A DNA stretch of 56,522 nt from a bacterium (GCA_030693295.1 JAUYAT010000057.1:1-56522); one strand, 5' to 3'; shown: positions 5,099 through 44,451, counted from the first letter of the stretch. The notes: a model not told the origin generated them from the letters alone. Translations and numbers: made by a program.

Positions 5099-5184
5099 AA
5101 CAAGCAACGAAAAATAAAAAACATGCGCAAATCTCCGCATGTTTTTTTGTTTCTTGTTCCATGTTCTATGTTCCATGTTCCATG
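5085..5184 (+). repeat. AACAT block, hairpin and inverted CCATGTT heptad block (right arm of cassette)
   Basis: AACATAAAACAAGCAACG, then hairpin AACATGCG..CGCATGTT with a T-run (5115-5147), then GTTTCTTGTTCCATGTTCTATGTTCCATGTTCCATG (5148-5184). Confidence 0.6.
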
Positions 5185-6017
5185 AGCAGCGCCGCGCCAA
5201 TCGCCCCGGCATGCTCGCCTAACTTGCCTTTTATTACTTTTATCTTTTTGGATTCAGTTGAATGAATATATTCACGCATAATTTTTTTTATTTTTGACAA
5301 AAACAAATCGCTTGATTCAATTACTCCGCCTCCGATGATAATTACTTCCGGATCAACTATATTAACAATATTGGCAAAAGCTATTCCTAAATTATAGCCG
5401 ACTTCCTCAAACACTTTTTCCGCCAAAACATCGCCTCTGTACGCTTCGTCCGCCAAAGCGGCAGGATTATTTTGCGTAAGCTTATGGTAAGCCGCTTCAA
5501 GGCTAAGCCCTGTTTCCACGTCAATCACCATCTCGCCCGGCTCGCCGGCGCCGCCGTGGCTGCCTTGATAAATTTCACTATTAAACCACCAAGCGCCGCC
5601 GATGCCTGTGCCGATTATTATGCCGTAAGCATTATTATATTTCCGCCCCGCTCCTAATTTCATTTCCGCGCGCAAAAAGCAACTAACGTCATGATCCATA
5701 CTCACCTGCATGCCTAATTTCTCCTCAAGTTGGCTGGCTAATTTTACTCCGTCAATTATATGCGCATTATTGCAAGTTAATATTTTTTTCTCTTTATAAT
5801 CTATGGTGCCGGGGATTCCTAGCCCTATGCCTTTAATTTTAACTTTATCATTATGTGCCTTATCAACTAACGGCTCAATCAAGGCGTTCAGCATAATCAT
5901 AAAATGCTCCAAAGTGTCTTTCGGAGTCGCCAACTTGTAGTCCATTATTATTTTCTCGCCGTCAAAAAGAATGGCCTTCATATTTGTGCCGCCTATGTCT
6001 ATGCCTATAGTGTACAT
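5166..6017 (-). CDS. ROK-family sugar kinase (glucokinase-like)
   Basis: MYTIGIDIGGTNMK N-terminal ATPase motif, GIGIPG, GTGIGG. Start at 6017 preferred (6035 possible). The last five codons and the stop lie in the CCATGTT heptad repeat. Confidence 0.85.
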   Translation of the reverse strand: MYTIGIDIGGTNMKAILFDGEKIIMDYKLATPKDTLEHFMIMLNALIEPLVDKAHNDKVKIKGIGLGIPGTIDYKEKKILTCNNAHIIDGVKLASQLEEKLGMQVSMDHDVSCFLRAEMKLGAGRKYNNAYGIIIGTGIGGAWWFNSEIYQGSHGGAGEPGEMVIDVETGLSLEAAYHKLTQNNPAALADEAYRGDVLAEKVFEEVGYNLGIAFANIVNIVDPEVIIIGGGVIESSDLFLSKIKKIMREYIHSTESKKIKVIKGKLGEHAGAIGAALLMEHGT

Positions 6018-6051
6018 TTTATTTTCTTTAACCATAGAATAAATAAATTTT

Positions 6052-7050
6052 TTAAAACAGCTTTTTCGCCTCTTCCCACAATTGCCCATCCCCATTTGCT
6101 TCGCGCTCCCAGTACCACCACTCTACTCCCCATAAATAAAACTCTTTAAAGCCGGAAAGGCGGGCAAACTCAATAATTTCCCTGAATTTTTCCAAATTCA
6201 TGGTTCTGTCACGCTCTTCTTTTGATAAATTCTGGTAAGGAACCGGCCCCCACGGCTCCGCCTGCAGTTCAATTACAACCCATTTATCAGGTTTGGCGAA
6301 TAAGCGGGTTATATTTTTCTTAAAGCGGAAAAATCCCGGGGCGATTGGATAATGGATATACATTTTCAAATGCCGCGAATAGGTGTCGCGGTACATTGTC
6401 GTGCCGAAAATATCGGCGCGCCTTGCCGCGGGAATCCAAACAGACAACTCGCCTGAATCAGTAACCACAATCGGCCGGACATCCAAGCTTCTTGTTAAAG
6501 CGATCTCTTTGTCCAAAAATTCACCGTCTACTTCGGGGCAATCGCCAAAATGAGCTAAAAAAGGCTCATTTTCCACCTGCCAAGCCGCGATGCTCTTATT
6601 TTCTTTATAACGGCTAACAACTTTCTCAATATAACTTAATATTTTAGCTTCTCTTTCTTCTTTAGTCAACCCTTTGGCCCAGCCGGGAAAATGGCATTCG
6701 GGCCAGCGGGGCAAGCGCCCGCCAACAGCCAAAATTATTTCCGCTCCGCGCTCTTCCGCTTCGGCGATCTGCCAGTCCAAATCATCCCAAAAATATTCAT
6801 TGCCGTTTTTTTCAACTTCATCCCAATAAGCCGGCAGGCGTATTTTTTTAACCCCCAATTCGTCCAATGCCGCCAGATAAACTTTGCGCCAGTCCAGACC
6901 CAAGCTTTCAGCCTGCTTTTTGGAAAAAGTTATGCCGTATTCCAGCTCGTTATTGCCGTAAATATGGCCGCGGCTTAATAAAAATATTAAAAATAAAAAA
7001 ATAATTAAAATAAAAAATATTCTTTTTATTCTCCTCGCATTTTTAAACAT
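6052..7050 (-). CDS. membrane-anchored glycoside hydrolase, clan GH-A (cellulase/GH5-like TIM barrel)
   Basis: N-terminal signal anchor. WQVENEP (acid/base NEP motif) and overall beta/alpha pattern. Family assignment is tentative. Confidence 0.6.
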   Translation of the reverse strand: MFKNARRIKRIFFILIIFLFLIFLLSRGHIYGNNELEYGITFSKKQAESLGLDWRKVYLAALDELGVKKIRLPAYWDEVEKNGNEYFWDDLDWQIAEAEERGAEIILAVGGRLPRWPECHFPGWAKGLTKEEREAKILSYIEKVVSRYKENKSIAAWQVENEPFLAHFGDCPEVDGEFLDKEIALTRSLDVRPIVVTDSGELSVWIPAARRADIFGTTMYRDTYSRHLKMYIHYPIAPGFFRFKKNITRLFAKPDKWVVIELQAEPWGPVPYQNLSKEERDRTMNLEKFREIIEFARLSGFKEFYLWGVEWWYWEREANGDGQLWEEAKKLF

Positions 7051-7078
7051 ACAAAATTATATGCATATTTCATAACCA

Positions 7079-7516
7079 TTACCAGACCTCTCCGCTAATG
7101 GCCTTTCTTATCTCGTCAACGACAAAAAGAGTGATTGAAAAAGCCACTAAAATAATCACCAAGCCGATTATGCCTCTTGTAAGCTGGTCTTTGGCTTCCC
7201 TGACTTTTTCTTCATTGCCGGCCGCGGTCATCCATTTATAGCCGGCCGTGATGATGATAACCAAAAATATTATTCCCAACAGGCCTAAAACCACCTGTAT
7301 AATTCTGGCAACAATTACCCTTATGTCTTTTGGCGCGTCAGAACCGTAAACTTCGGTGCCAACCTCGCTTAACCCCCCCTCCTGAACCATGTTCCATAAA
7401 TTATTATCGACCGCGCTTACTTTAACCGCGCCAATGCCGCAGACCAAACAAAACTGCGCTAAAAGAGCGACAAATAAAATTATAAAGCTTAAAAAACGTT
7501 TTTTGGCAATTTTCAT
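7079..7516 (-). CDS. TrbC/VirB2-like small membrane protein, paralog 2
   Basis: Signal peptide plus TAGYKWMTAAGNEEKVREAKDQL core between two TM helices. ATG at 7516 chosen. Confidence 0.75.
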   Translation of the reverse strand: MKIAKKRFLSFIILFVALLAQFCLVCGIGAVKVSAVDNNLWNMVQEGGLSEVGTEVYGSDAPKDIRVIVARIIQVVLGLLGIIFLVIIITAGYKWMTAAGNEEKVREAKDQLTRGIIGLVIILVAFSITLFVVDEIRKAISGEVW

Positions 7517-7586
7517 ATTGTTTATGTTATAATTAAATAAGACTATAATTATATTATACTTAAAATCAATAAAAACTACAATCTTT

Positions 7587-9020
7587 ATGCGTTTATCCAC
7601 GAAAGTGGCCTACAATACGATAATACAAATTATCAGCAAAATCATTGCCACGATTTTGGGCCTGATAGCCATCGCCGTAATGGCGCGGTATTTGGGCCGG
7701 GAAGGATTTGGCCAATACACAACCATTGTCACATTTTTATCTTTTTTCGGCATTATAGCCGATCTCGGGCTTACTCTCATCACAGTGCAAATGATCAGCC
7801 AGCCGAATGTTGATGAAAATAAAATTTTAAGCAATCTTTTCAGCTTGCGCTTAATTTCAGCCGTTGTTTTTTTGGGGATCGCGCCTCTTACGGTAATCTT
7901 CTTCCCTTACGAGCCGATTATTAAGCTTGGCGTGGCAATCGCCTCGCTTTCTTTCTTTTTTATCGCTCTGAACCAAATTTTAACGGGTTTGTTCCAAAAA
8001 AATTTGCGCATGGACAAGGTTTCCATCGCCGAAGTGGCCGGCAAGATTATTTTAGCGGCGGGAGTAATTTTGGTTTATTATCTTGACCTGGGACTGCTTA
8101 ATATGCTCGTTGCCGCCGTCGCGGCCAGCGCTGTTAATTTTTTATTGCATTATCTGTTTTCCCGCCGGTTCGCCCGCATTAAATTGTGTTTTGATTTCGC
8201 GGTCTGGCGCGAAATCGCGAAAAAATCATGGCCGCTGGCAATAACCATTATTTTCAATCTGATTTATTTAAAAACCGACACCTTGCTTTTGTCGCTGATT
8301 AAGCGGCCGTCTGAAATCGGCATTATCGCCGAAGTCGGAATTTACGGCGCCGCTTATAGAGTTATTGATGTTTTGATTACTATGCCCTTTATGTTCGCCG
8401 GTCTTATCCTGCCGATCTTAACCGCCCGCTGGGCAAAAGGCGAAAAACAGGGCTTTAACAATGTCCTGCAAAAATCATTTGACATGATGGCTATGTTCGC
8501 CATCCCCTTGGTTGTCGGCGCGCAATTTACGGCTAAAGATATTATGGTTTTAGTGGCCGGGCCTGACTTTGAAGCATCCGGCCCGATTCTGCAAGTCTTA
8601 ATCGCGGCGGCCGGCATTATTTTTCTCGGGTGCATGTTCGCCCACGCGATAATAGCGCTTGACAAGCAAAAGAAAATAATCGGCTTTTATATTTTTACCG
8701 CTGTTACGGCGGTTATCGGCTATTTAATCCTTATACCCCGCTACTCCTATTTCGGCGCGGCCTGGGTGACAATCTACAGCGAGATTACTATCGCTTTGGC
8801 TTCTTTCTATTTGGTTTGGAAATACTCCGGATTTCTGCCGAGCTTAAAGCCAACCGCGAAAATTTTAGCCGCTTCGTTGGTTATGGCGGGCGCGCTTTAT
8901 TCAGCTTCCGGCTGGAATCTATTTTTAGCTTTAGCGCTGGCAACGGCGGTGTATTTTATAACGCTTTACTTATTTAAAGGGATAACAAAAGAGGATATAA
9001 CGAGCTTATTGAATAAATAA
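7587..9020 (+). CDS. MOP-superfamily polysaccharide/oligosaccharide flippase (Wzx/MurJ-like)
   Basis: 477 aa with about 14 TM segments. N-terminal pattern A.N...Q.....I...L......R.LG...G.Y is typical of the polysaccharide biosynthesis protein family. Confidence 0.8.
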   Translation: MRLSTKVAYNTIIQIISKIIATILGLIAIAVMARYLGREGFGQYTTIVTFLSFFGIIADLGLTLITVQMISQPNVDENKILSNLFSLRLISAVVFLGIAPLTVIFFPYEPIIKLGVAIASLSFFFIALNQILTGLFQKNLRMDKVSIAEVAGKIILAAGVILVYYLDLGLLNMLVAAVAASAVNFLLHYLFSRRFARIKLCFDFAVWREIAKKSWPLAITIIFNLIYLKTDTLLLSLIKRPSEIGIIAEVGIYGAAYRVIDVLITMPFMFAGLILPILTARWAKGEKQGFNNVLQKSFDMMAMFAIPLVVGAQFTAKDIMVLVAGPDFEASGPILQVLIAAAGIIFLGCMFAHAIIALDKQKKIIGFYIFTAVTAVIGYLILIPRYSYFGAAWVTIYSEITIALASFYLVWKYSGFLPSLKPTAKILAASLVMAGALYSASGWNLFLALALATAVYFITLYLFKGITKEDITSLLNK

Positions 9021-10192: not shown

Positions 10193-10908
10193 CTCAACAA
10201 TACCAAACTATCTACGAAGACAATAATTATTTAATAATCAACAAGCCGGCCGGCCTGCTGGTTCATGGCGCCGAGCATATTAACGAACCGGCTTTGTCCG
10301 ACCAATTATTGGAAAAATATCCCAAGCTGGCTAAAATAGGCGAGGACCCGAGCCGGCCCGGGATTATGCACCGCTTGGACAAGCAAGTGTCGGGGCTTAT
10401 GGCAATCGCTAAAACGCAGGAAGCGTTTGACCATTTAAAAAAACAATTTAAAAAAAGAACCGTGGATAAAAAATACATCGCTTTGGTTTACGGCAGAATC
10501 GCCAGGGATGAGGGCGTGATTGATTTCCCGATTGAACGAAGCGTCAGAAGCGGCAGGATGGCGGCCTTGCCCAAAACCGTCAAGGGCGAGCTTGAGCTAA
10601 GAGGCAGGCGGGCGGTTACGGAGTTTGAAGTCAAGCAAAGGTTTATAAATTACACCTTGTTAAAAATAAAAATCAAAACCGGGCGCACCCACCAGATAAG
10701 GGTCCATATGTCGGCTTACGGCCATCCGGTAGTCGGCGACGATCTGTACGGAACAAAAAAAACAAGGGAAAAAAACAAAAAACTAAACTTTGGCAGAATA
10801 TTTTTAGCGGCGAGAGAACTGTCTTTTGACGACTTGGCCGAAAAAAGGCGGCATTTTAAAGCGGGCCTGCCCGAGGAATTAAATATGTTTCTGCAAAAAT
10901 TAAAATAA
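10189..10908 (+). CDS. RluA-family pseudouridine synthase (RluD-like, lacks S4 domain)
   Basis: INKPAGLLVHG, HRLDKQVSGLM (catalytic Asp), KYIALV, GRTHQIRVH. Confidence 0.9.
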   Translation: MTQQYQTIYEDNNYLIINKPAGLLVHGAEHINEPALSDQLLEKYPKLAKIGEDPSRPGIMHRLDKQVSGLMAIAKTQEAFDHLKKQFKKRTVDKKYIALVYGRIARDEGVIDFPIERSVRSGRMAALPKTVKGELELRGRRAVTEFEVKQRFINYTLLKIKIKTGRTHQIRVHMSAYGHPVVGDDLYGTKKTREKNKKLNFGRIFLAARELSFDDLAEKRRHFKAGLPEELNMFLQKLK

Positions 10909-10933
10909 TTATTATAAATTAAGCTTCGCGCGT

Positions 10934-11521
10934 ATGTCTAATATTTTCATTATCTCCGGCCCGTCCGGATCGGGCCAGGACAGTGTTATTGAAGGCCTGC
11001 GAAAAATACTGCCGATTGAGCGGGTAATAACCGCGACAACCAGGCCGATGCGCCCCGGAGAATCGCAAAAAAATCCGTATTATTTTATTGGCAAAACCGA
11101 ATTTAAAAAAGCCATAAAAGAAAATAAATTTTTTGAACACGCTGAGGAATACAACGGCCATTATTACGGAGTTGCGCGCCGGGAAATCAACAGGGCAAAA
11201 CGAAGCAAAAAAATCAACATTTGGAAAATGGAATATAAAGGGGTGATAACCGCTAAAAAATTAATACCCGGCATAACGGCTATTTTGATTTACGCCCCTT
11301 TAAAAAATCTGGAAAAAAGAATCAGGCAAAGAGGGAAAAACGTTTCTGAAAAATTTATCAAGGAAAGAATGGATTATACCAAGCAGTTTCTCAAACATAA
11401 AAATATTTATGATTATAAGGTGATAAACAAAGAAGGCGAATTAAACAAAGCCGTAAACGATGTTGCCAAAATCATAAAAAAGAAGCTGAAATTGCGCCCT
11501 GGCCGGCTTGACAAATCATAA
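10934..11521 (+). CDS. gmk: guanylate kinase
   Basis: ISGPSGSGQDS P-loop, TTRPMRPGE, YYF and EYNGHYYG motifs. Confidence 0.9.
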   Translation: MSNIFIISGPSGSGQDSVIEGLRKILPIERVITATTRPMRPGESQKNPYYFIGKTEFKKAIKENKFFEHAEEYNGHYYGVARREINRAKRSKKINIWKMEYKGVITAKKLIPGITAILIYAPLKNLEKRIRQRGKNVSEKFIKERMDYTKQFLKHKNIYDYKVINKEGELNKAVNDVAKIIKKKLKLRPGRLDKS

Positions 11522-12347: not shown

Positions 12348-12812
12348 ATGGGACATATTACCAACTCGGAAAAAGAAACATTTAATTTCGCCAAAAAATT
12401 CGCTAAACGGCTTAAAGGCGGAAAAATCATCGGCCTTACAGGCGATCTTGGCGCCGGCAAAACCGTTTTTGCCAAAGGGCTGGCGGCCGGCTTGGGCGTT
12501 AAAAAAAATATAACCAGCCCGACTTTCGTATTGATGAAGGTATATCAAACTAAATATCCAAATATCAAATATTTAATCCATATTGACGCTTATCGCCTTA
12601 AAACTCCTCAAGATTTAATCGCCATCGGCGCGGAAGAATATTTTAACCGGCCCGATGCCGTAACAGTTATAGAATGGGCTGATAAAATAAAAAAAATCTT
12701 GCCTAAAAAGACAAAATATATTGGAATAATAAACAAGGATGAAAATAAAAGAATAATTATTTTTTTACCACTTGTCCGCCGACAGACAGGATCAGCCATC
12801 CCAAGCCGATAA
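12348..12812 (+). CDS. tsaE: tRNA t6A37 biosynthesis ATPase TsaE
   Basis: GDLGAGKTVFAKGLA P-loop, SPTF, HIDAYRL, EW motifs. The 3' end overlaps convergent lspA, so the true stop context is uncertain. Confidence 0.85.
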   Translation: MGHITNSEKETFNFAKKFAKRLKGGKIIGLTGDLGAGKTVFAKGLAAGLGVKKNITSPTFVLMKVYQTKYPNIKYLIHIDAYRLKTPQDLIAIGAEEYFNRPDAVTVIEWADKIKKILPKKTKYIGIINKDENKRIIIFLPLVRRQTGSAIPSR

Positions 12813-13203
12813 CTCCTCCGACAATCATAACATCGGCCAAATTAAAAACCGTAAAATATTTTAAATCAAAATAATCAATTACATAGCCGTACCGCAGGCG
12901 GTCAAGCAGATTGCTGATAGCGCCAAAAATAATAAAAAGCAGATAATCGGCTTTTTGATAATCTCTTTTTTTAATAAAATATAATAAATTATAAATTAAA
13001 GCTAACACCAAAAAAATAATAATAACATTCAACCAGAAGCCGGCAAGGGGCAAGGAAAAAGCGATATTAAAATTGCCCACAAAATTTAATTTAAACGAAT
13101 CGCCTATTATTTCCATCGGCTTGCTGAAAAAATCATTAACCGCCAAAAACTTAAAAAAACGATCAAAAATAATAAGGATGACAGTTAAAATATAAGCTGT
13201 CAT
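12757..13203 (-). CDS. lspA: lipoprotein signal peptidase II
   Basis: FGAISNLLDRL and FNLADVMIVGG motifs, four TM segments. ATG at 13203 chosen. Confidence 0.85.
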   Translation of the reverse strand: MTAYILTVILIIFDRFFKFLAVNDFFSKPMEIIGDSFKLNFVGNFNIAFSLPLAGFWLNVIIIFLVLALIYNLLYFIKKRDYQKADYLLFIIFGAISNLLDRLRYGYVIDYFDLKYFTVFNLADVMIVGGVIGLGWLILSVGGQVVKK

Positions 13204-16034: not shown

Positions 16035-16065
16035 CTCCTGGATTCCCGCTTCCGCGGGAATGACA
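16035..16065. repeat. palindromic repeat family A, single unit
   Basis: CTCCTGGATTCCCGCTTCCGCGGGAATGACA. The same unit occurs at 16965-17037, 27331-27404 and 39240-39382. Confidence 0.8.
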
Positions 16066-16964: not shown

Positions 16965-17037
16965 TGTCATTCCCGCGAAAGCGGGAATCCAGATTCTATG
17001 CGCTAACTCCTGGATTCCCGCTTTCGCGGGAATGACA
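16965..17037. repeat. palindromic repeat family A, inverted pair
   Basis: TGTCATTCCCGCGAAAGCGGGAATCCAG, 14-nt spacer, CTCCTGGATTCCCGCTTTCGCGGGAATGACA. Confidence 0.85.
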
Positions 17038-24197: not shown

Positions 24198-25553
24198 TTA
24201 ACAGTTGTTGTAGATTAGCTGTTTGATGGAATTTATGTTTTGTTTTGTTCTTTCGTTTTCTTTAACTTCTTTGCGGATTTTATTGTGAGCGTGCATAGCC
24301 GTGGTATGGTCGCGGCCGCCTATTTCATGTCCGATTGTCGGAAAAGAGGTGTTAATTTCCTCTCTCATTAAATACATTGTGATTTGGCGCGGAACAACCA
24401 ATTCTTTTTTGCGGCTTTTGCCGATTATGTCTTTGATGTGAATATCAAAATATTTTGACACCGCCTCAAGTATAATTTTTGGCGTGGTTGACTTGGATTG
24501 ATAATCATTAATAATATTACTTAGAATGCTTTGAGTGGTTTCAATAGTGGGTATGGAATTATTAAATTCATAATAGGCGATTAAGCGGTTTAACGCTCCT
24601 TCCAGCTCTCTGACATTGCTTTGGATGTTATTAGCGATATAATTTAAAATATTTTCTTCAAGGAGGTAGTTTTTTTCTCTGCACTTAGCTTCAAGTATGG
24701 CCATTCTGGTTTCCAAATCGGGTAATGATATATCCGCTATCATGCCCCATTCAAAGCGAGAAAGCAGTCTTTTTTCCAGCGCGGGGATGGCTTTGGGCGG
24801 CCTGTCGGAAGAGATTACAATTTGTTTGTTGGTTTGGTGCAGTTCGTTGAAAGTATGAAAAAATTCTTGCTGGGTGCCGTCTTTGCCGCCCATAAACTGA
24901 ATGTCGTCAATCAGCAGCAAATCAACGTTGCGGTAGTGGTCTTTAAAATCCTTGGCAAGGCCGTTGCGCACCGCCTGGATGTAGTCATTGGTGAATCTTT
25001 CGCAAGTTACATAAAGAATTTTATCCGTTTTTTTTGACAGCTCGTGGCCGATTCCCTGCAAGAGATGGGTTTTGCCCAATCCCACGCCGCCGTAAATAAA
25101 AAGAGGATTATAGGCGTAGCCCGGGTTGGTGGCGACCGCCTGGCAGGCAGCGTGGGCCAGCTCGTTGTTTTTGCCTACTATAAAATTATTGAAAGTATAG
25201 CGGCTGTTTAAGCCAAAGCGGTTAACGGCGATGGGTTTGCTGGCAATAGCGCCGTCTTTTTTTATATCCATTTTTTTTAAAAGTTCGCTGATCGTGCCGG
25301 CTTTTTTAGTTTCAACTTTGTAAAAAATTTCTTTTATATTTTCTCCGGCGATGTTGTTGATTGCGCCGGCTATTTCTTTATGGTATTTTTTTTCCAGCCA
25401 AGCTTTTGTAAAAGCGTTGGGAACGCTGATAACGATTTTGCCGTTTTCATAAGAAGAAATGAAAGTGTTTTTAAACCAAGTGGTAAAATTAGCTTTTGAT
25501 AAATTTAGCTCTATTTCGCCTAAAACAGCTTGCCAAAGTTGTTCATTATTCAT
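24198..25553 (-). CDS. dnaA: chromosomal replication initiator DnaA
   Basis: NPLFIYGGVGLGKTHLLQ Walker A, LLIDDIQF Walker B, SSDRPP, VRELEGAL, C-terminal DNA-binding helix GGRDHTTAMHA. Confidence 0.97.
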   Translation of the reverse strand: MNNEQLWQAVLGEIELNLSKANFTTWFKNTFISSYENGKIVISVPNAFTKAWLEKKYHKEIAGAINNIAGENIKEIFYKVETKKAGTISELLKKMDIKKDGAIASKPIAVNRFGLNSRYTFNNFIVGKNNELAHAACQAVATNPGYAYNPLFIYGGVGLGKTHLLQGIGHELSKKTDKILYVTCERFTNDYIQAVRNGLAKDFKDHYRNVDLLLIDDIQFMGGKDGTQQEFFHTFNELHQTNKQIVISSDRPPKAIPALEKRLLSRFEWGMIADISLPDLETRMAILEAKCREKNYLLEENILNYIANNIQSNVRELEGALNRLIAYYEFNNSIPTIETTQSILSNIINDYQSKSTTPKIILEAVSKYFDIHIKDIIGKSRKKELVVPRQITMYLMREEINTSFPTIGHEIGGRDHTTAMHAHNKIRKEVKENERTKQNINSIKQLIYNNC

Positions 25554-27330: not shown

Positions 27331-27404
27331 TGTCATTCCCGCGAAAGCGGGAATCTAGGCGTTAAGCGAATAAAATCTGGATTCCCGCTTTCGCGGGAAT
27401 GACA
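27331..27404. repeat. palindromic repeat family A, inverted pair
   Basis: TGTCATTCCCGCGAAAGCGGGAATC, 21-nt spacer, CTGGATTCCCGCTTTCGCGGGAATGACA. Confidence 0.85.
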
Positions 27405-38183: not shown

Positions 38184-39134
38184 ATGTACGACACAATAAT
38201 AATAGGAACAGGGCCGGCTGGGTTTACCGCCGGAATTTACGCGGCGCGCCGGGAAATGAAAACTTTGATTATCGGCAAGGAAATGGGCGGGCAATTGATT
38301 TGGGCTTCGGAAATAGAAAATTATCCGGGCTTTAAATCAATCAGCAGTTTTGATTTGATCAATAAGATGAATGAGCAAGTCAAGGCGTTGGGCGTGGAAA
38401 TAAAAAGCGATGAAGTGAAAAAGATAGAAAACAAGGATAATAAGTTTGTTTTGCATACCAGCAGGGATATTTATGAGGCCCGCACCGTTATTTTAGCCAT
38501 GGGCTTGTCGCCGCGCCGTTTAGCTATCCCCGGAGAGGAAAAATTAACCGGCAAAGGAGTTTCTTATTGCGCCAACTGCGACGGCCCTTTTTACAAAAAT
38601 AAAACCGTGGCTGTCGTGGGCGGAGGCAACAGCGCCCTGGACGCGGCTGAAATTTTGTCCAAGATTGCTAAAAAAGTTTACTTAATCCATCGCCGGGACG
38701 AATTCAGGGGCTTTGAGTCGTTGGTTAACGAAATAAAGGCAAGGAAAAATATTGAGCTTGTTTTAAACAGCGAGCCGAGAGAAGTTATCGGGGAAAATAA
38801 ACTGGAAAAGATAAAAATTTTTAACAATAAAACGCGGAAAGAAAAAGATTTGGAAATTGACGGCTTGTTTGTGGAGATCGGCCGCATTGCCAACACTGAT
38901 TTAGTGGCTGATTTGGTGAAGCGCAATGAACGCGGTGAAATTATCGCGGATGAAAAATGTATGACCAATTGTCCGGGCATGTTCGCGGCCGGCGATGTAA
39001 CGCCGGTTGAATTCAAGCAGATTACTATCGCCTGCGGCCAGGGTACGATCGCGGCTTTGGCGGCTTACCAGTATTTGCGGCTGAAGCAAGGCGAGAGCGG
39101 AGAGGTTGTTGACAGGAGCTATATGAAAAAATAG
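38184..39134 (+). CDS. trxB: thioredoxin-disulfide reductase
   Basis: IIGTGPAG FAD motif, redox-active CANCDG, VVGGGNSA NADPH motif, GDV. Confidence 0.92.
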   Translation: MYDTIIIGTGPAGFTAGIYAARREMKTLIIGKEMGGQLIWASEIENYPGFKSISSFDLINKMNEQVKALGVEIKSDEVKKIENKDNKFVLHTSRDIYEARTVILAMGLSPRRLAIPGEEKLTGKGVSYCANCDGPFYKNKTVAVVGGGNSALDAAEILSKIAKKVYLIHRRDEFRGFESLVNEIKARKNIELVLNSEPREVIGENKLEKIKIFNNKTRKEKDLEIDGLFVEIGRIANTDLVADLVKRNERGEIIADEKCMTNCPGMFAAGDVTPVEFKQITIACGQGTIAALAAYQYLRLKQGESGEVVDRSYMKK

Positions 39135-39239
39135 AAACCCGCCCTTTTAAATTTATAAAAGATCAGTTAAAATATAGTCATGCATGCGTAAATAATAATA
39201 AATTTCGCATAATGAGAGCGTTGAATAATTCCTTCTCTT

Positions 39240-39382
39240 TGTCATTCCCAGCTTGACTGGGAATCCAGGAGTTAGTGGTATGAATAAGAAAATAGATAAA
39301 AGTATTAAAAGTATTAAACTTTTTATTAATTATTCGCGTTTCTGCGGTTCACTCCTGGATTCCCGCTTTCGCGGGAATGACA
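39240..39382. repeat. palindromic repeat family A, inverted pair with about 80-nt spacer
   Basis: TGTCATTCCCAGCTTGACTGGGAATCCAGGAG (variant loop) and CTCCTGGATTCCCGCTTTCGCGGGAATGACA. Confidence 0.8.
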
Positions 39383-39467
39383 ATGGAGGAGGTAAATTTA
39401 ATTATTCAACAGTCTAATAATATACAAATTTTGTATATTATCCGTTAATAAGTTCGCATATTAACGA

Positions 39468-39560
39468 GTTATGCCGAAATCGCTCGCTCCCCCTCGCCTG
39501 CGGGCTCGGGTCGCTCGCTCCTTTTCGGCATAACGGCTTCGGAAATAATTCCGGTTATGC
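39468..39560 (+). repeat. GC-rich block bounded by GTTATGC / GCATAAC / GTTATGC core-like motifs (degenerate attC-like remnants)
   Basis: GTTATGCCGAAA...TTTCGGCATAAC palindrome (39468-39534). Short GCATAAC..GGTTATGC palindrome (39528-39560). Confidence 0.35.
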
Positions 39561-39588
39561 TCCGCCGCTCGCTTTCGCTCGCGACTTC

Positions 39589-39671
39589 GCATAACACGGA
39601 ATACGCGAAATGGCCTCTCGCCGCACTGCGGTGCGGCTCCGGCCACATCGCTTATTCCGAAGCCGTTAAAC
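39589..39671 (+). repeat. attC-like structured site 1
   Basis: GCATAAC ... GTTAAAC. Folds as AAC/GTT box, 1x5 internal loop, 7-bp CGGAATA/TATTCCG box and a long imperfect terminal hairpin. It ends 24 nt before the next ATG. Confidence 0.45.
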
Positions 39672-39694
39672 GAAAAAAATTTTATCCTAGTGCT

Positions 39695-40324
39695 ATGAAA
39701 ACATTAATTCTCACTTCAAGTGGACAATTTATCACCGCTAATAATGTGGATGATTTTTTGCCGAAGAAAATAACCGATTGTAAAATCGCGTATATTATAA
39801 CTGCATCAAAAAAAGTGTCGGATACTGGATATATTGATAGACATCGGCAAAAAATGGACGAGCTGAACTTCTCCTATGACGAGATTGATATTGCTGGTAT
39901 GAATGAAAACGAATTAAAAAAGGCACTCGACGGGCATGATATTATTATGGTTGAAGGTGGCAACACATTTTATTTATTAAAAGCTATTCGTGAAAGTGGC
40001 TTTGAAAATGTTGCAAAAGATTTAATTGAGAGGGGTGTGGTTTACATTGGTTCAAGCGCTGGCTCTTATGTTGCGTGCCCGTCGATAATTGTATCAACTT
40101 ACGCCAAGAAACAAAAAGACAGGTGTGGCGTCACGGATCTTACAGCTATGAATTTAGTGCCTTTTTTAATTAAGGCTCATTACACTCCAGACATGTTGCC
40201 AGATTTGAAAGATATCAAAAAAAATATAGAATACCCGTTGCATGTTTTGAATGACCAGCAAGCTTTATTAATCAGGAACGGAGAAGTTCAGCTCTTAGGT
40301 GGCGGTGACGAAATAATATTATAG
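39695..40324 (+). CDS. peptidase E / S51-family (type 1 glutamine amidotransferase-like) protein
   Basis: MVEGGNTFYLL and YIGSSAGS (nucleophile Ser) motifs. ATG at 39695 chosen because the upstream part of the ORF is read from GC-rich repeats. Confidence 0.8.
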   Translation: MKTLILTSSGQFITANNVDDFLPKKITDCKIAYIITASKKVSDTGYIDRHRQKMDELNFSYDEIDIAGMNENELKKALDGHDIIMVEGGNTFYLLKAIRESGFENVAKDLIERGVVYIGSSAGSYVACPSIIVSTYAKKQKDRCGVTDLTAMNLVPFLIKAHYTPDMLPDLKDIKKNIEYPLHVLNDQQALLIRNGEVQLLGGGDEIIL

Positions 40325-40356
40325 GTGGGCTAACAACGACGGATAAAATTTTCATC

Positions 40357-40484
40357 GTTTAACACGGCATATCCGGTTCAGGAATTTCTCGCATTTATAA
40401 TTCAAGGTAAGAAAAATTCCTTCTCCCAAATTTTTGTTCCGCTATCGCTGCACAAAAACTTCGGATGATGCCGATACGTTATCG
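40357..40484 (+). repeat. attC-like structured site 2
   Basis: GTTTAAC (fits RYYYAAC) ... GTTATCG. AAC/GTT box, 1x4 internal loop, CGGCAT/ATGCCG box, one extrahelical G, ATCCG/CGGAT box, about 80-nt variable terminal structure. Confidence 0.5.
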
Positions 40485-40516
40485 GAAATTGAAAAAATTT
40501 TATCCCTCTCAAATCT

Positions 40517-40981
40517 ATGAAAGTATTTATTGAAAACGAAGCTGGTAGTGACCAAAAAAATCTCTACAATGAGAAAACTTTGAAATACAAAAAAACTGTT
40601 ACAGTATCGAGAAAATATCCCTACCCTTATGGTTTCATTTTGGATACAACTAGCGGAGATGGCGATAATGTGGACGCCTTTATCATCACTGACAAATCGC
40701 TGAAGTCTGGGCAGATTGTTGAATGTGAACCTATTGGACTCATGGAGCAAATGGAAAAATCGTGGGATGAATCTCGGGGCGATACAGAAGAAGTCGATCA
40801 CAATGTTCTTGCGGTGTTGTCAGGAGATGATCAGAATGTTGTCAGTGATGAAGTAAAGGCTCGTCTTACGGATTTCGTGCTTCATGTCTTCGACCACATT
40901 CGTCCTAACAAAAATCGGGTAGGGAATTTTCTCGATAAGCAGGAAGCGTTAAAGTACATTGAAAGCTGTAAGGATGGATAG
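40517..40981 (+). CDS. family I inorganic pyrophosphatase-like protein (short)
   Basis: YPYPYGFILDTTSGDGDNVDAFII matches the PPase Y-P-x-N-Y-G-F-I-P / D-G-D-P-x-D core. Confidence 0.7.
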   Translation: MKVFIENEAGSDQKNLYNEKTLKYKKTVTVSRKYPYPYGFILDTTSGDGDNVDAFIITDKSLKSGQIVECEPIGLMEQMEKSWDESRGDTEEVDHNVLAVLSGDDQNVVSDEVKARLTDFVLHVFDHIRPNKNRVGNFLDKQEALKYIESCKDG

Positions 40982-41010
40982 CCATGACGGGATAAATTTT
41001 TTTCAACATC

Positions 41011-41088
41011 CGATAACACGGCATATCTGGAAAAAGTTTTTACAAAACTTTTTCGCAAATTGCTACGCACTTCGGATACGCCGATACG
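41011..41088 (+). repeat. attC-like structured site 3, left part (interrupted by IS)
   Basis: CGATAACACGGCATATCTGG ... CTTCGGATACGCCGATACG. Continues at 42416-42430 with ACCGATTCGTTAGCC. Confidence 0.45.
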
Positions 41089-42415
41089 CACTAGTGTCGC
41101 GTTAAAAATCAAATAATCTTAGCTGTTTTTTTGAAAATTCATCGCAATTTTGTAATTCCGTTTCAGAAAGCAGCGTATTTACGAGGGTTTTCTCGAATTG
41201 GGATACTGACAAAATTTGTAGAATTTCGTAGAGATTTCTCTTGATGCCTAATTTCTTTTTCATAATAGCAACCAGTAGAAAAGCGCACAAAGCGATGCAG
41301 ATTTGCGTCTTGACCGCGTTCGCCGAATAGCCCCAGAATACTTCAATCCGCAAATGCTGTTTAATCCATTTAAAGAATAATTCAATCTGCCAGCGATGCT
41401 TGTATAAGTCTGCGATTTTCTTCGCGTCAAGATTGAAGTGATTCGTCAGATAAGTATAGTATTTGCTCGTTTCAACGTCATAATATTTTATCCGCCTCAA
41501 TTTTTTCGGATAATATTTTTTAGAATAAAAGTGTTTCAGTTTAATAATCTGATCGCAGCGCAGTCCGGTTGATTTATCAACTTTATTTGAATACATTCTC
41601 TTGCATGATAAACTGCCTTTCGCGCGAATAACAAAAAATGCTTTTTGCCGATCGATTTTGAATAATCTCTCGAAGTCGAAGTAGCCGCGATCCATTATGT
41701 AGAACGCGCCTGCTTCAAACTCGAGAACATCCAGAAAGTTAACATCATGCGTTTTGGCCTCTGTTATGAGGAAAAACGAAGGAATATTGCCGCGTAAATC
41801 CAGTTGCGTATGAATTTTTACCGCTGATTTTCCCAGTTCGAAATAGGCCCATTTGAATGTCGCCAGGCACAACTCAATTACCGTCGAATCGAGCGCGTAA
41901 ACCGCGCCGTCAAGTTCGATGCTGAAATCATTGTCGTTGACATATAATTTTCTAGCCCGTCCAATTAATATTTGAGCCAAATCCCGATAGATCTGCCAGT
42001 CGCGATTTTCATTAGCGCGCGCCAATGTCGACAACATGAAATTATCAATTTTAAAGCCGAGGTGATACAATAAATTTGAATGAGCGTTCAAACACAAGAC
42101 GATGTTGCGCAGGCTGTGCAAGTTGGTCAGCTGACCGAACGCCAACGCGAGGAATTGATCACGACAGCTTAAATTACGAACACGATTGTTGCCGCAGTAA
42201 CGTTTAACGCATTTATCGAGTTCATATTGAGTGACAAATTCAATGATTTGCGCAAAAATATATTTTCCTTGGTTCATAGATAATTAACTTAATTTATTAA
42301 ATTATGCGCTAATTATCTCATTGAAAATTCAAATCGTAAAATTTTAAAAAGAGCAATTTATATTTAATATTAAATAATATTTTTTAAAATCTTTTTGCTT
42401 AACGCGACACTAGTG
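41089..42415 (-). mobile_element. IS4-family insertion sequence (1327 bp)
   Basis: Perfect 17-bp terminal inverted repeats CACTAGTGTCGCGTTAA (41089-41105) and TTAACGCGACACTAGTG (42399-42415). Flanks GCCGATACG / ACCGATTCG look like a decayed 9-bp target duplication. Confidence 0.85.
41102..42277 (-). CDS. IS4-family DDE transposase
   Basis: N-terminal MNQGKYIFAQIIEF..F.C.DQFL...FGQL....SLR pattern, DDE residues (YALDST, IMDRGY) and the IS4 hallmark Y-(2)-R-(3)-E-(6)-K in YKHRWQIELFFKWIK. Confidence 0.9.
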   Translation of the reverse strand: MNQGKYIFAQIIEFVTQYELDKCVKRYCGNNRVRNLSCRDQFLALAFGQLTNLHSLRNIVLCLNAHSNLLYHLGFKIDNFMLSTLARANENRDWQIYRDLAQILIGRARKLYVNDNDFSIELDGAVYALDSTVIELCLATFKWAYFELGKSAVKIHTQLDLRGNIPSFFLITEAKTHDVNFLDVLEFEAGAFYIMDRGYFDFERLFKIDRQKAFFVIRAKGSLSCKRMYSNKVDKSTGLRCDQIIKLKHFYSKKYYPKKLRRIKYYDVETSKYYTYLTNHFNLDAKKIADLYKHRWQIELFFKWIKQHLRIEVFWGYSANAVKTQICIALCAFLLVAIMKKKLGIKRNLYEILQILSVSQFEKTLVNTLLSETELQNCDEFSKKQLRLFDF

Positions 42416-42430
42416 ACCGATTCGTTAGCC
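42416..42430 (+). repeat. attC-like site 3, right part with GTTAGCC core
   Basis: ACCGATTCGTTAGCC. The GTT lies 30 nt before the next ATG, the same spacing as at the other sites. Confidence 0.4.
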
Positions 42431-42453
42431 GAAATAAATTTAATTTTTCTTTT

Positions 42454-42762
42454 ATGGATTTCAAAGAATTGCAAAACAAAGTCGTGCAAAACGCCATAAA
42501 TTACGGCAAGAAATACAATGTTCAAATTGACGAGGATTTCGCGCTGTTAAAATTATACGAAGAAGTCGGTGAATTGGCTCAAGCGGTTTTGATCCACAGG
42601 AAAAAGAGCCGGCCGGAAAAATATGTTTCGGAGGAAATTTCAAAAAAAGAGTTGGGGAAAGAATTGGCGGATGTTGTCGGTATGGCAATAATTAATGCTC
42701 ATTTGTTGGGAATTGATTTAGAAGAAGCGATAGATAAAAAATGGATTAATAAAGAAAAATAA
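42454..42762 (+). CDS. MazG-like nucleoside triphosphate pyrophosphohydrolase domain protein
   Basis: L.EEVGELA ... ELADV pattern (the EExxE...D metal site of all-alpha NTP-PPases), 102 aa. Confidence 0.7.
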   Translation: MDFKELQNKVVQNAINYGKKYNVQIDEDFALLKLYEEVGELAQAVLIHRKKSRPEKYVSEEISKKELGKELADVVGMAIINAHLLGIDLEEAIDKKWINKEK

Positions 42763-42858
42763 AAATTTACATAAATTTATTTTTGTCCTTTAAAACTTAA
42801 AAATTAGAATTGGGCGAAAAGAAAAATAAAAAATACAAAACAAAAGGAGGGAAAGAAG

Positions 42859-43143
42859 ATGAGCGAGAAGTTAAAAGAGCTTTTTCCTGGCGCAAAAATA
42901 ATTAAGTTGCCGTCGCTTGATCCTGAAATAGAGAGAGCGTTGCAGGAGTCTTGCGGAAATTTTAACAGAGCGTTAAAAAGGAGCGAGGAATCGTCTAAAA
43001 TTCCAGACATCAATTCTTGTGGGAAATGCCCAAGTTGTGGCAGTAGAAATTATTTTCCATTGTGGGGCGGCAGCTGTGATAAACAATGCGCAGATTGCAA
43101 AACTGCATACGATTGTGTAAACATGGAGGGTTGTCATGAATGA
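42859..43143 (+). CDS. hypothetical Cys-rich zinc-ribbon protein
   Basis: RBS AAGGAGGG. CGKCPSCGS ... CDKQCADC ... C..C cysteine pairs. No family recognised. Confidence 0.5.
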   Translation: MSEKLKELFPGAKIIKLPSLDPEIERALQESCGNFNRALKRSEESSKIPDINSCGKCPSCGSRNYFPLWGGSCDKQCADCKTAYDCVNMEGCHE

Positions 43144-43387
43144 GAAAAAGATTTCGGATTTAAAATTAATTCATACTATGACAGAGAAATAAAAGGAGAA
43201 GTTTTGTAAATTCCAAATGGAAGCGATAAGAATACCGTTAAGGAAGTCACAGCACTGGAAAGACACGGCATTACAAAGAGTAGGCGATACCGTTGTTTGG
43301 TATAAAGTGGGATTTTTTTAATAATTCCTTTATTAGTTTCCGCCGCAGTCTCTTTCAAAAAGAACTGCGGCATTTTCATTAAAAAAA

Positions 43388-43720
43388 TTAAACGTTTAGC
43401 CGCGCCGCGAAATTAAAGGCGTAAAAATATTTTTGCCATTGCTTGTCCGTGGAACAATAAATATTTTCTCCGGCAAAATAGTCAGCAAACACTTCTCGCG
43501 CTCTTAAAATTTCTTTTAATCTCTTTTTATTTTTGCCGTCAGCCACGGTTAAATCAAAAAGCTCCAGCGCTCTTATAAACGCTTTTTCAGCGTATTCCCC
43601 GCTGTTCTTATTTTTCCATTTTATGGCTCTTTCAACTTCACTGCCGATATTCGCCATTTGCTCAAAAAAAGAAAGTTCCTGCCATCGTCCGCCGGCTAAT
43701 TGTTGGTGTTGTATTGTCAT
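43388..43720 (-). CDS. hypothetical helical protein
   Basis: 110-aa ORF opposite to its neighbours. Helical composition; no motif recognised. Confidence 0.5.
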   Translation of the reverse strand: MTIQHQQLAGGRWQELSFFEQMANIGSEVERAIKWKNKNSGEYAEKAFIRALELFDLTVADGKNKKRLKEILRAREVFADYFAGENIYCSTDKQWQKYFYAFNFAARLNV

Positions 43721-43815
43721 TTGGTTATGTTATGGATTATTGTTAATGATAAACGAAAAATAATATATAGTCAATGAGTAGGGTATGCATAATGTATTTG
43801 TGCTATAATTAAAGC

Positions 43816-44451
43816 ATGCTGGATCTGATTGAGGAGCAAAATTTATTTAATGAAGGGTATAAATTGGTGGCAGGCATTGACGAGGCCGGGCGCGGACCAT
43901 TGGCCGGACCGGTAGTGGCGGCCTGCGTTATATTCAAGCCGGGTTTCAAGATGGAAGATTTGGAATTTTCCGAATTAAGATTGGTTAATGATTCAAAAAA
44001 ATTAAATGAGAAGAAAAGAGAAGCGCTTTTTAAGGTTATTAAAGAAGAGTGCCGCGGAATCGGCGTAGGCATCTGCGACCATAAAACGATTGACAGAATA
44101 AATATTCTGCAAGCGACATTTTTAGCGATGAAAAAAGCTATTGGAGCGCTGAAGGAGAAGCCCGAGTTTATTATGGTGGACGGCAAATTTTTAATCCCCA
44201 ATTGTTCATACAAGCAAAAGGCGATAATAGGCGGCGACAAATCGGTATTTTCCATCGCCGCCGCTTCAATTATCGCCAAAGTGACCAGGGACAGGATTAT
44301 GCGGAAAATGCATGAGCAATATCCCGACTACGGTTTTGACAAGCATAAGGGCTATGGCACAAAACTGCATTTAGCATGTTTAAAAAAATACGGGCCGTGC
44401 GAGATACATCGCAGAAGCTTTGGGCCGATTAGGCGAGTAAATAGTAAATAG
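43816..44451 (+). CDS. rnhB: ribonuclease HII
   Basis: GIDEAGRGPLAGPVV, DSKKL, ASIIAK, DKHKGYGT motifs. Confidence 0.92.
   Translation: MLDLIEEQNLFNEGYKLVAGIDEAGRGPLAGPVVAACVIFKPGFKMEDLEFSELRLVNDSKKLNEKKREALFKVIKEECRGIGVGICDHKTIDRINILQATFLAMKKAIGALKEKPEFIMVDGKFLIPNCSYKQKAIIGGDKSVFSIAAASIIAKVTRDRIMRKMHEQYPDYGFDKHKGYGTKLHLACLKKYGPCEIHRRSFGPIRRVNSK

Follow-up and report, generated by a model that had tools for sequence, protein, structure and literature searches.

A probable recombinase-less array of integron-like cassettes in a chromosome of Patescibacteria

Introduction

Integrons, and the recombinase-less arrays known as clusters of attC sites lacking an integrase (CALINs), are defined in PMC4889954 and PMC9024848. 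In the current view, integron integrases (IntIs) went from recombination of double-stranded DNA to that of hairpins by acquiring the I2 helix, which reads the extrahelical bases of attC (PMC7790495). Direct proof of this view is lacking, because deletion of I2 kills IntI1. Here we describe a stretch of 56,522 nt of bacterial DNA (GCA_030693295.1 JAUYAT010000057.1:1-56522; 'the window' means this whole stretch), in which positions 39418-43298 probably represent a cassette array. It would belong to an integron-like system of site-specific recombination, one with a wide distribution in Patescibacteria (the Candidate Phyla Radiation, CPR). The array is referred to as CALIN-like because the window contains no recombinase.

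Two other systems are relevant here. XerCD, which has no I2 helix, integrates the CTX phage through a folded single-strand hairpin that mimics the duplex core site; the centre of the hairpin is unpaired, only one strand undergoes exchange, and the junction is then resolved through replication (PMC7790495). Archaeal IntIs have been reported to have the IntI-specific additional domain, and archaeal attCs to fold like the bacterial ones (Ghaly et al. 2022, PMC9668308).

Patescibacteria are absent from the list of integron-bearing phyla in a 2021 review (PMC8618304). As presumed in an earlier note on the window (the original prediction), the lineage is poorly documented in this respect: no integron description in Patescibacteria, CPR or Parcubacteria was found in the openly searchable literature, subscription journals not being covered. 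In a permafrost survey with IntegronFinder, no complete integron was found on 97.4% of the contigs with 'integron-type' recombinases, and its authors suspected attC detection (PMC13323075).

Results

The hairpin sites form a covarying family

The original prediction was that of an integron-like array without an integrase, in which three hairpins with AAC and GTT ends and a layered, attC-like fold separate single open reading frames (ORFs). The hairpins (W1, W2 and W3; Table 1) and their ends were borne out by the sequence. Each site consists of an AAC box, a bubble of 1 x 4-5 nt, a covarying second box, a variable tip and a GTT box, 75-135 nt in all. The tips in the window, given as 50-80 nt in the prediction, actually span about 40-95 nt. 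The bottom-strand folds of W1, W2 and W3 gave z scores of -6.7, -3.6 and -4.4, respectively, which were equalled by none of 200 shuffles.

W1-W3 were aligned with six further sites, taken from related loci, and all nine had the same AAC and GTT. The second box contained six pairs with compensatory changes, and 88% of cells were paired; no comparable result was obtained in 500 column shuffles or slid registers. The layered fold stood as predicted. In further related arrays, GTT was replaced by ATT at some sites.

A covariance model of the window-type sites (R1) was run with the filters off. It replaced a crude scan for AAC...GTT stems, which was dropped because it gave 50 matches versus 26-48 in shuffles of this AT-rich DNA. 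The R1 matches in the window fell within 39585-41088 only: W1 scored 56 bits (E 3e-13), W2 81.8 bits and the truncated W3 43.3 bits, and the next-best score was 14.3 bits (E 0.27). In 797 kb of Patescibacteria DNA fetched by the window TrxB, there were two matches, which lay 1.2 kb apart on the same strand of one locus. A dispersed repeat family, which the original prediction had named as a refutation, was therefore not what was found. From these comparisons and those of the cassette ends below, the sites emerged as a structured, covarying family confined to arrays, with mutually complementary cassette ends.

Some weak to moderate R1 matches (16-40 bits) were also seen outside Patescibacteria, in Flavobacteriaceae (L015 11213-13572 and L019 9780-9918; related loci and contigs are denoted by L numbers) and Spirochaetota (L021 10763-10868). 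They lay downstream of short tyrosine recombinases (~262-273-aa match) and on the same strand. These hint that I2-less recombinases with hairpin arrays may not be limited to one phylum.

Cassette ends are complementary along the chain

A cassette starts with the TT of a GTT box and ends with the G of the following one, and contains one promoterless ORF or none. The end of W1, GTTAAACGA, is the exact reverse complement of the start of W2, TCGTTTAAC (9/9 nt), and the end of W2, GTTATCGGA, is the reverse complement of the start of W3, TCCGATAAC (9/9 nt). The complementarity of the cassette ends stretches to 23 nt for the S51-peptidase cassette and 29 nt for the pyrophosphatase cassette, at about 90%. 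In these extended repeats, a conserved mismatch of 2-3 nt (GAAAT versus the complement of ACATC) is followed by 8-15 cassette-specific pairs.

This chain rule was tested on hand-curated junctions from five arrays, a junction being scored as complementary if at least five of the six variable positions paired. The consecutive junctions were complementary in 19/27 cases, versus 77/688 (11%) for mismatched pairs (Mann-Whitney p 4e-9). With the repeated elements counted once, the figure was 15/23. The curated-junction test was used in place of an exhaustive search of [G/A]TT positions for inverted repeats, which was as noisy as the crude stem scan. If exchange occurs at G|TT, each cassette start carries the partner of its own AAC-side box. 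Judged by the junction sequences, the complementarity of cassette ends is a hallmark of exchange at G|TT.

Two sites hold a whole ORF in the variable tip, where it separates the two halves of the second box (L001 6276-6765, 104 aa; L101 ~12350-13075, minus strand, ~180 aa). These ORFs are flanked by the inverted motif AATAAAATATTT / AAATATTTTATT. An insertion nested in the site, or a different layout of the cassette, could account for them.

Cassettes occur in different contexts

The S51-peptidase cassette has many relatives in Patescibacteria. Those of L001 and L003 were ~81-84% identical to that of the window; the identity ran from G|TTAAAC to the next G|TT, and the flanks were unrelated. 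Eight contigs (L173-L180) shared one identical S51 protein, and their cassette was 91% identical to that of the window, including the long variable tip.

Across the window, L176, the L173 type, L001 and L003, the S51 site was followed by five different partners. The partner was the pyrophosphatase cassette in the window, an ORF-less element in L001, and another sequence in L003. In L176 it was TTAGGCGAA, with which the Ddl cassette upstream of S51 in L001 begins. In the L173 type it was TTAGCTGAAATATTCC..., which in L007 is the cassette nearest to the recombinase. In all, the S51 cassette was seen in at least five contexts besides that of the window. The array of L001 also contains the MazG-like gene of the window, the two proteins being 81% identical. 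The alignments showed that cassettes vary in presence, order and context, and that the breaks fall at G|TT; presence/absence variation at these junctions had been proposed in the original prediction as a check.

Related arrays are associated with one recombinase family

No recombinase was detected in the 56.5-kb window by Pfam or by tblastn, in agreement with the original prediction. On the other hand, L001, which was found via the S51 cassette, encodes a tyrosine recombinase of 278 aa, divergent from an array of small genes of ~10 kb with R1-type sites. The cargo of this array includes HD, Ddl, S51, DUF4037, PAS, methyltransferase and NUDIX genes.

Loci were then fetched by the recombinase alone. 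All five that could be assessed (L004, L006, L007, L169 and L170) had 3-5 R1 matches each (up to 64 bits), located solely within a few kb upstream of the recombinase gene on the opposite strand. L055 had a single recombinase-adjacent match at the contig end. L171 also had a single match, 7 kb off, past a diversity-generating retroelement. L172 was left out of the count because its contig ends 186 nt upstream of the gene. In L001, L004, L006 and L007, the motif (A/G)GTT(G/A)G..TAT-N6-G|TT is present about 80 nt from the recombinase start codon. This co-occurrence showed a tight association of the arrays with one recombinase family.

The retroelement of L171 (1213-7178), in the interval between the recombinase and the R1 match, comprises an RVT_1 reverse transcriptase, the accessory protein bAvd and a large Calx-beta target protein. 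Another of the related contigs, L003 (565 kb), has RecQ and DEAD-box helicase genes split into short adjacent ORFs at 5181-8947, which could reflect frameshifts or pseudogenes, or errors of assembly, and there are tRNA-like and GIY-YIG fragments close by.

The array-adjacent recombinases are 278-281 aa long in six loci. The recombinase passed the model of the XerA type (NF040815; 247.9 bits, cut-off 220), and scored 211-213 bits, far under the cut-offs, with the XerC and XerD models. With the integron integrase model (TIGR02249) it scored 244.8 bits, under the cut-off of 265, in two stretches. The best solved relative was the Vibrio IntI4 (VchIntI4, 2a3v), and this match was also in two pieces, with residues 181-237 skipped. 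There the recombinase has only 14 residues in place of the IntI-specific additional domain (an insertion of ~55 aa). It aligned to XerA (5hxy) unbroken from end to end.

The catalytic residues R-K-H-R-H-Y were invariant in 32 members of the family. The family has thousands of sequences in Patescibacteria, and its name at NCBI, 'site-specific tyrosine recombinase/integron integrase', hints at an integron link. A profile scan of genome contigs with the recombinase alignment returned, among the matches listed, mostly distant tyrosine recombinases of 30-48% identity.

Anatomy of the array

The co-oriented array consists of a head, two mini-cassettes, the S51 cassette, the pyrophosphatase cassette and a unit with MazG-like and zinc-ribbon-like ORFs (Table 1). 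Three intact sites, one minimal site and one decayed site lie on a single strand within 3.9 kb.

Table 1. Positions of the array, its sites and neighbouring features in the window
Feature	Position	Strand	Remarks
trxB (thioredoxin-reductase-like)	38184-39134		upstream neighbour of the array
Array head (putative landing site)	39418-39468	+	palindrome AATATAC-N7-GTATATT, then TTCGCATATTAACGAG|TT; first crossover G = 39468
Mini-cassette 1	39469-39554	+	GC-rich, ORF-less; 12-nt terminal inverted repeats TTATGCCGAAA / TTTCGGCATAA; fold; chain rule 6/6
Minimal site of mini-cassette 1	GCATAAC 39528-39534 ... GTTATGC 39554-39560	+	
Mini-cassette 2	39555-39665	+	ORF-less; ends in attC-like site W1 (39589-39671)
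Site W1	GCATAAC 39589-39595 ... GTTAAAC 39665-39671	+	
S51-peptidase cassette	39666-40478	+	ORF 39695-40324; 23-nt terminal inverted repeats; site W2 (40357-40484)
Site W2	GTTTAAC 40357-40363 ... GTTATCG 40478-40484	+	
Pyrophosphatase cassette	40479-42424	+	ORF 40517-40981; 29-nt terminal inverted repeats; W3 interrupted by an insertion sequence (IS); chain rule 6/6
Site W3	CGATAAC 41011-41017 ... 41088, then 42417-42430	+	GTTAGCC 42424-42430 past the IS
IS4-type insertion sequence	41089-42416	-	in the 3' end of W3; transposase 41102-42277; outside the cassette system
Terminal unit	42425-43298	+	MazG-like ORF 42454-42762; zinc-ribbon-like ORF 42859-43143; decayed site ~43258-43298
110-aa ORF	43388-43720	-	variable region of the array-rnhB interval; no Pfam match; array membership uncertain
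rnhB	43816-44451		downstream neighbour of the array

The head carries the motif TTCGCATAxTAACGAG|TT after a small palindrome. Homologous heads precede the first cassette in L173-L180 and occur twice in L003; in both cases, no recombinase was found within the flanks available. The resemblance of the window head to the attI-like motif AGTTGGTTTAT-N6-G|TT next to the recombinase in L001, L004, L006 and L007 was weak. Kinship with that motif was dropped, as the recombinase-less heads of L003 and L173-L180 are far closer. The original prediction had allowed for a CALIN or the distal part of a longer array. The CALIN-like, integron-like array was supported, but 'distal' was wrong, for the array begins with a conserved head junction.

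The remnants bounded by GTTATGC and GCATAAC, which the prediction had placed at 39468-39560, were real. In the GC-rich stretch 39468-39588, GTTATGC...GCATAAC delimits both of the ORF-less mini-cassettes.

Repeated ORF-less GC-rich cassettes were also observed in L001 (four of ~200-210 nt, at 5320-5535, 6755-6966, 8545-8748 and 10735-10939) and on the minus strand of L004 (two of ~125-145 nt, at ~9285-9160 and ~8770-8625). They start with TTCAGC(A/G)A, their ends directly abut, and they form a long GC hairpin bounded by AAT...ATT, not AAC...GTT, a compensated change of the R box. One of the L001 copies directly follows the recombinase-side junction. The mini-cassettes at 39469-39665 in the window look like the same kind of element.

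The S51 ORF matched Pfam Peptidase_S51 (E 1.5e-34) and the pyrophosphatase ORF matched Pfam Pyrophosphatase (E 4e-18), as expected from the original prediction. The MazG-like ORF gave weak matches: 22.8 bits with PF03819 MazG (cut-off 22, E 1.1e-4), and 24.3 bits with PF12643 MazG-like (under the cut-off of 27, E 3.7e-5). A Pfam search with the predicted zinc-ribbon ORF gave no match. The 'reversed ORF' of the prediction turned out to be the transposase of the insertion sequence, a protein of 391 aa with DDE_Tnp_1 and DUF4372 domains (Pfam).

The insertion sequence has perfect terminal inverted repeats of 17 nt and an imperfect flanking duplication of 8 nt (CCGATACG/CCGATTCG). Its removal in silico gave ...GCCGATAC-GTTAGCC and restored a layout like that of W2. 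The insertion point is only a few bases from the G|TT crossover of W3.

Degenerate ends had been suspected near 43238 and 43283. The window has three copies of the nonamer ACACGGCAT (0.15 expected), at W2, at W3 and at 43263, and the last copy marks a decayed terminal site, which reads gACACGGCAT...GGCGATACcGTT. R1 detected no intact site between the MazG-like and zinc-ribbon-like ORFs.

The ATGs lie 30, 39 and 30 nt downstream of the G of the successive sites, in agreement with the 30-39 nt predicted. The cassette leaders (23-32 nt) are too short for a promoter, and none had been seen there in the original prediction. A promoter consensus scan found no promoter-like match in them, a scan that is uninformative in this AT-rich window (31 matches versus 13.6 expected).

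Chromosomal setting

The window is chromosomal DNA of low GC content (~39%). It contains dnaA (24198-25553, minus strand) and dnaN, and the minimum of the cumulative GC skew is at about 23-24 kb. The best relatives of DnaA are proteins labelled Candidatus Parcubacteria or Patescibacteria (77-80% identity), which assigns the source lineage of the window, by this marker, to Patescibacteria.

The relatives keep the gene order trxB-rnhB-methyltransferase-membrane protein-yraN. The shortest gap between trxB and rnhB was 12 nt (L093), and three further loci had gaps of 79-374 nt. Six relatives with gaps of 1.3-2.4 kb were searched for an array and had none. The gap of L101 (6.8 kb) contains an array on the opposite strand and an N-terminal remnant of the recombinase.

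The space between trxB and rnhB was a variable hotspot in the comparison of the window (39135-43815) with L093, L104, L156, L099, L089, L097, L102, L112, L125, L130 and L101. The majority of the fillings in the relatives were other than cassette arrays. That of L089 comprises unannotated minus-strand ORFs and another GC-rich palindrome.

The ORF at 43388-43720 had no counterpart in any syntenic trxB-rnhB relative. A scan of metagenomes with TrxB gave no close relative, the nearest match being at most 76% identical. No protein identical to the S51 or pyrophosphatase protein of the window was on record.

Alternative explanations

The recombinase might be a housekeeping dimer resolvase of the Xer type, with the head as dif and the cassettes piling up at dif in the manner of integrative mobile elements exploiting Xer (IMEXs). 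Single-recombinase Xer systems have dif beside the gene. The score with the XerA model, the unbroken alignment with XerA and the thousands of family members in Patescibacteria are all in line with this explanation, and so is the integration of the CTX phage as a folded hairpin by XerCD (PMC7790495). Against it, GC skew had the same sign on both flanks in 5/6 recombinase loci, which, the flanks being short, only suggests that these are not termini. A distance of ~15 kb separates the window array from dnaA and the skew minimum, and the head motifs are not dif-like palindromes. The cassettes are co-oriented, promoterless and single-gene and follow the chain rule, in the fashion of integrons. We consider a resolvase acting at dif unlikely. 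Its mechanism overlaps with that of an integron-like system, and the chief difference is whether the enzyme is dedicated.

The array might instead be an ordinary CALIN, with canonical attCs served by a true IntI from another part of the genome. In favour of this, attC arrays have the same R box, bubble, L box, variable tip, AAC...GTT boxes and chain rule. A stand-in model (R2) was made from 13 attCs beside true IntIs (Vibrio, a gammaproteobacterium, and metagenome-assembled genomes of Anaerolineales and Calditrichia). As a positive control, R2 found seven untrained attCs in four other IntI loci. In the window and four Patescibacteria arrays, R2, a surrogate for the attC model of IntegronFinder, gave at most 12.5 bits and left the sites undetected. 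Conversely, R1 gave no matches at true-IntI loci, which were taken from the recombinase scan of genome contigs.

The geometry of the sites also differed. The canonical consensus had a 5 x 5 spacer and two loops of 2 versus 1 nt, in which the extra base was on the 5' arm of the top strand, which corresponds to the extrahelical base on the 3' arm of the bottom strand. Of the window-type sites, 0/9 had an extra base on the canonical arm and 4/9 had a bulge on the opposite arm. The recombinases next to the arrays in six loci are without the IntI insertion. An ordinary CALIN is thus quite improbable.

Small units with terminal inverted repeats, moved by a transposase such as that of the insertion sequence, would account for the repeats of 23-29 nt around each ORF and for the insertion sequence within the array. 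These repeats are cassette-specific and unrelated to the ends of the insertion sequence (CACTAGTG...). The cassette ends show no target-site duplications, and the units abut at a shared G|TT in a structured site. The insertion sequence has its own 8-nt duplication and merely interrupts W3, and no transposase accompanies the arrays of L001, L004, L006, L007, L169 and L170. Transposable units are therefore very improbable.

Finally, stable intergenic hairpins downstream of ORFs could be repetitive extragenic palindromic (REP)-like or terminator hairpins with no role in mobility, an explanation of negligible probability given that the sites are confined to arrays whereas copies of a true REP-like family (CTGGATTCCCGC) are scattered over this window, that W1-W3 have no T-tract behind them and none was called by a terminator scan, and that complementary cassette ends and swapping of contexts at G|TT are unexpected for terminators.

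The CTGGATTCCCGC family is palindromic, the motif and its complement often forming inverted pairs, with 15 matches in the window versus 3.4 expected. It occurs in at least four places (16038-16049, 16981-17021, 27347-27388 and 39257-39366), and was the source of the top non-array scores of R1. The copy between trxB and the array head (39209-39421) lies inside longer inverted arms. An Rfam search of the window gave tRNAs only; Rfam has no attC family.

Discussion

Taken together, the covarying sites, the complementary cassette ends, the exchange of partners and the associated recombinase argue for an integron-like cassette system, of which the window array is probably a recombinase-less member. 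'Integron-like' is the right term for this array, and 'integron' in the strict sense is unproven.

Several points weigh against this interpretation. The locus may or may not be active, as the window contains no recombinase; the terminal unit has decayed along with its site, and another site is split by the insertion sequence. The chain rule was broken at 8/27 junctions. The link between arrays and recombinase is guilt by association, and sequence can tell neither the recombining strand nor a folded from a duplex substrate.

A hybrid site is a further such point. In L173-L175, L177, L178 and L180, the S51 site (~150 nt past the stop codon) has the AAC box, 5' half and tip of W2, and a 3' half of CGCATATCCCG instead of CGGATGATGCCG, with the breakpoint about 20 nt before G|TT. 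Taken at face value, this hybrid means that exchange is not always at G|TT, or that homologous recombination acts too.

In the integron-like system that we propose, the recombinase, acting in trans or lost from the window locus, would excise cassettes as circles by site-by-site exchange. The excised cassettes would be inserted at head sites, with exchange at [G/A]|TT. The substrate is probably the folded bottom strand, with exchange of one strand and resolution by replication, as in integrons and CTX phage/XerCD. If the substrate is folded, the cleaved strand would be the bottom one, because a cassette moves together with the site downstream of it and the breaks are at the GTT box. Sites inverted relative to canonical attC, with recombination of the top strand, were rejected on the same ground.

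An enzyme without the I2 region, acting on hairpins without the bases that I2 reads (PMC7790495), may recognize a near-duplex core with an unpaired centre. A nearly regular hairpin could mimic a duplex core site. The terminal inverted repeats of 20-30 nt would abut only in the excised circle and lengthen the stem, which may favour insertion of the free cassette. Expression of the cassettes would rely on read-through from trxB.

We give an even chance to a broader proposal, that a sister form of the integron, so far undescribed, is widespread in Patescibacteria, with an I2-less IntI/XerA-like enzyme, sites without extrahelical bases and an extended stem. Such a form would have either survived from a pre-integron stage, in which hairpin capture came before I2, or been invented independently. 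If this proposal is true, I2 is not required for cassette arrays on folded sites, and part of the pool of 'integron-type' recombinases without attC found by current tools would be explained. The ultrasmall, host-dependent Patescibacteria would gain a dedicated platform for gene exchange.

Natural arrays of hairpin sites with an I2-less IntI/XerA-like recombinase make the need for I2 directly testable, which bears on the origin of integrons. The arrays also point to a blind spot in integron finders. In this context, the window array itself is a recombinase-less and partly decayed example.

Among known systems, the pdif modules of Acinetobacter plasmids are also discrete gene modules that are bounded by Xer-type sites and shuffled between replicons. 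The pdif sites are 28-bp duplexes in alternating orientation, unlike the hairpins of 75-135 nt in direct orientation in Patescibacteria, and neither an adjacent dedicated recombinase nor a chain rule is known for the modules. The CTX phage and IMEXs share the use of a hairpin by a Xer-type enzyme without I2, which is the working model for the Patescibacteria arrays. They differ in that a whole phage genome is inserted at the terminus dif, with no arrays of single-gene cassettes and no chain rule.

Archaeal integrons are likewise arrays of cassettes with hairpin sites outside the classical proteobacterial range, known from metagenome-assembled genomes. In the Patescibacteria system, on the other hand, the additional domain is missing and the site geometry is different.

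The closest parallel is with integrons and CALINs. Common to both are co-oriented, mostly single-gene, promoterless cassettes, layered AAC...GTT hairpins, exchange at G|TT, and the existence of recombinase-less arrays. The related loci further share with integrons a divergent tyrosine recombinase, at a distance of about 80 nt from the start of which there is a conserved junction motif. The window array has at least two co-oriented close sites and no integrase, and is a CALIN only if these sites count as attC-like. The Patescibacteria system is set apart by a recombinase of 278-281 aa without the IntI-specific insertion (the region of the I2 helix), by sites with a 1 x 4-5 bubble, no conserved extra bases and sometimes ATT for GTT, and by cassette ends that pair over 20-30 nt, versus 7 in integrons.

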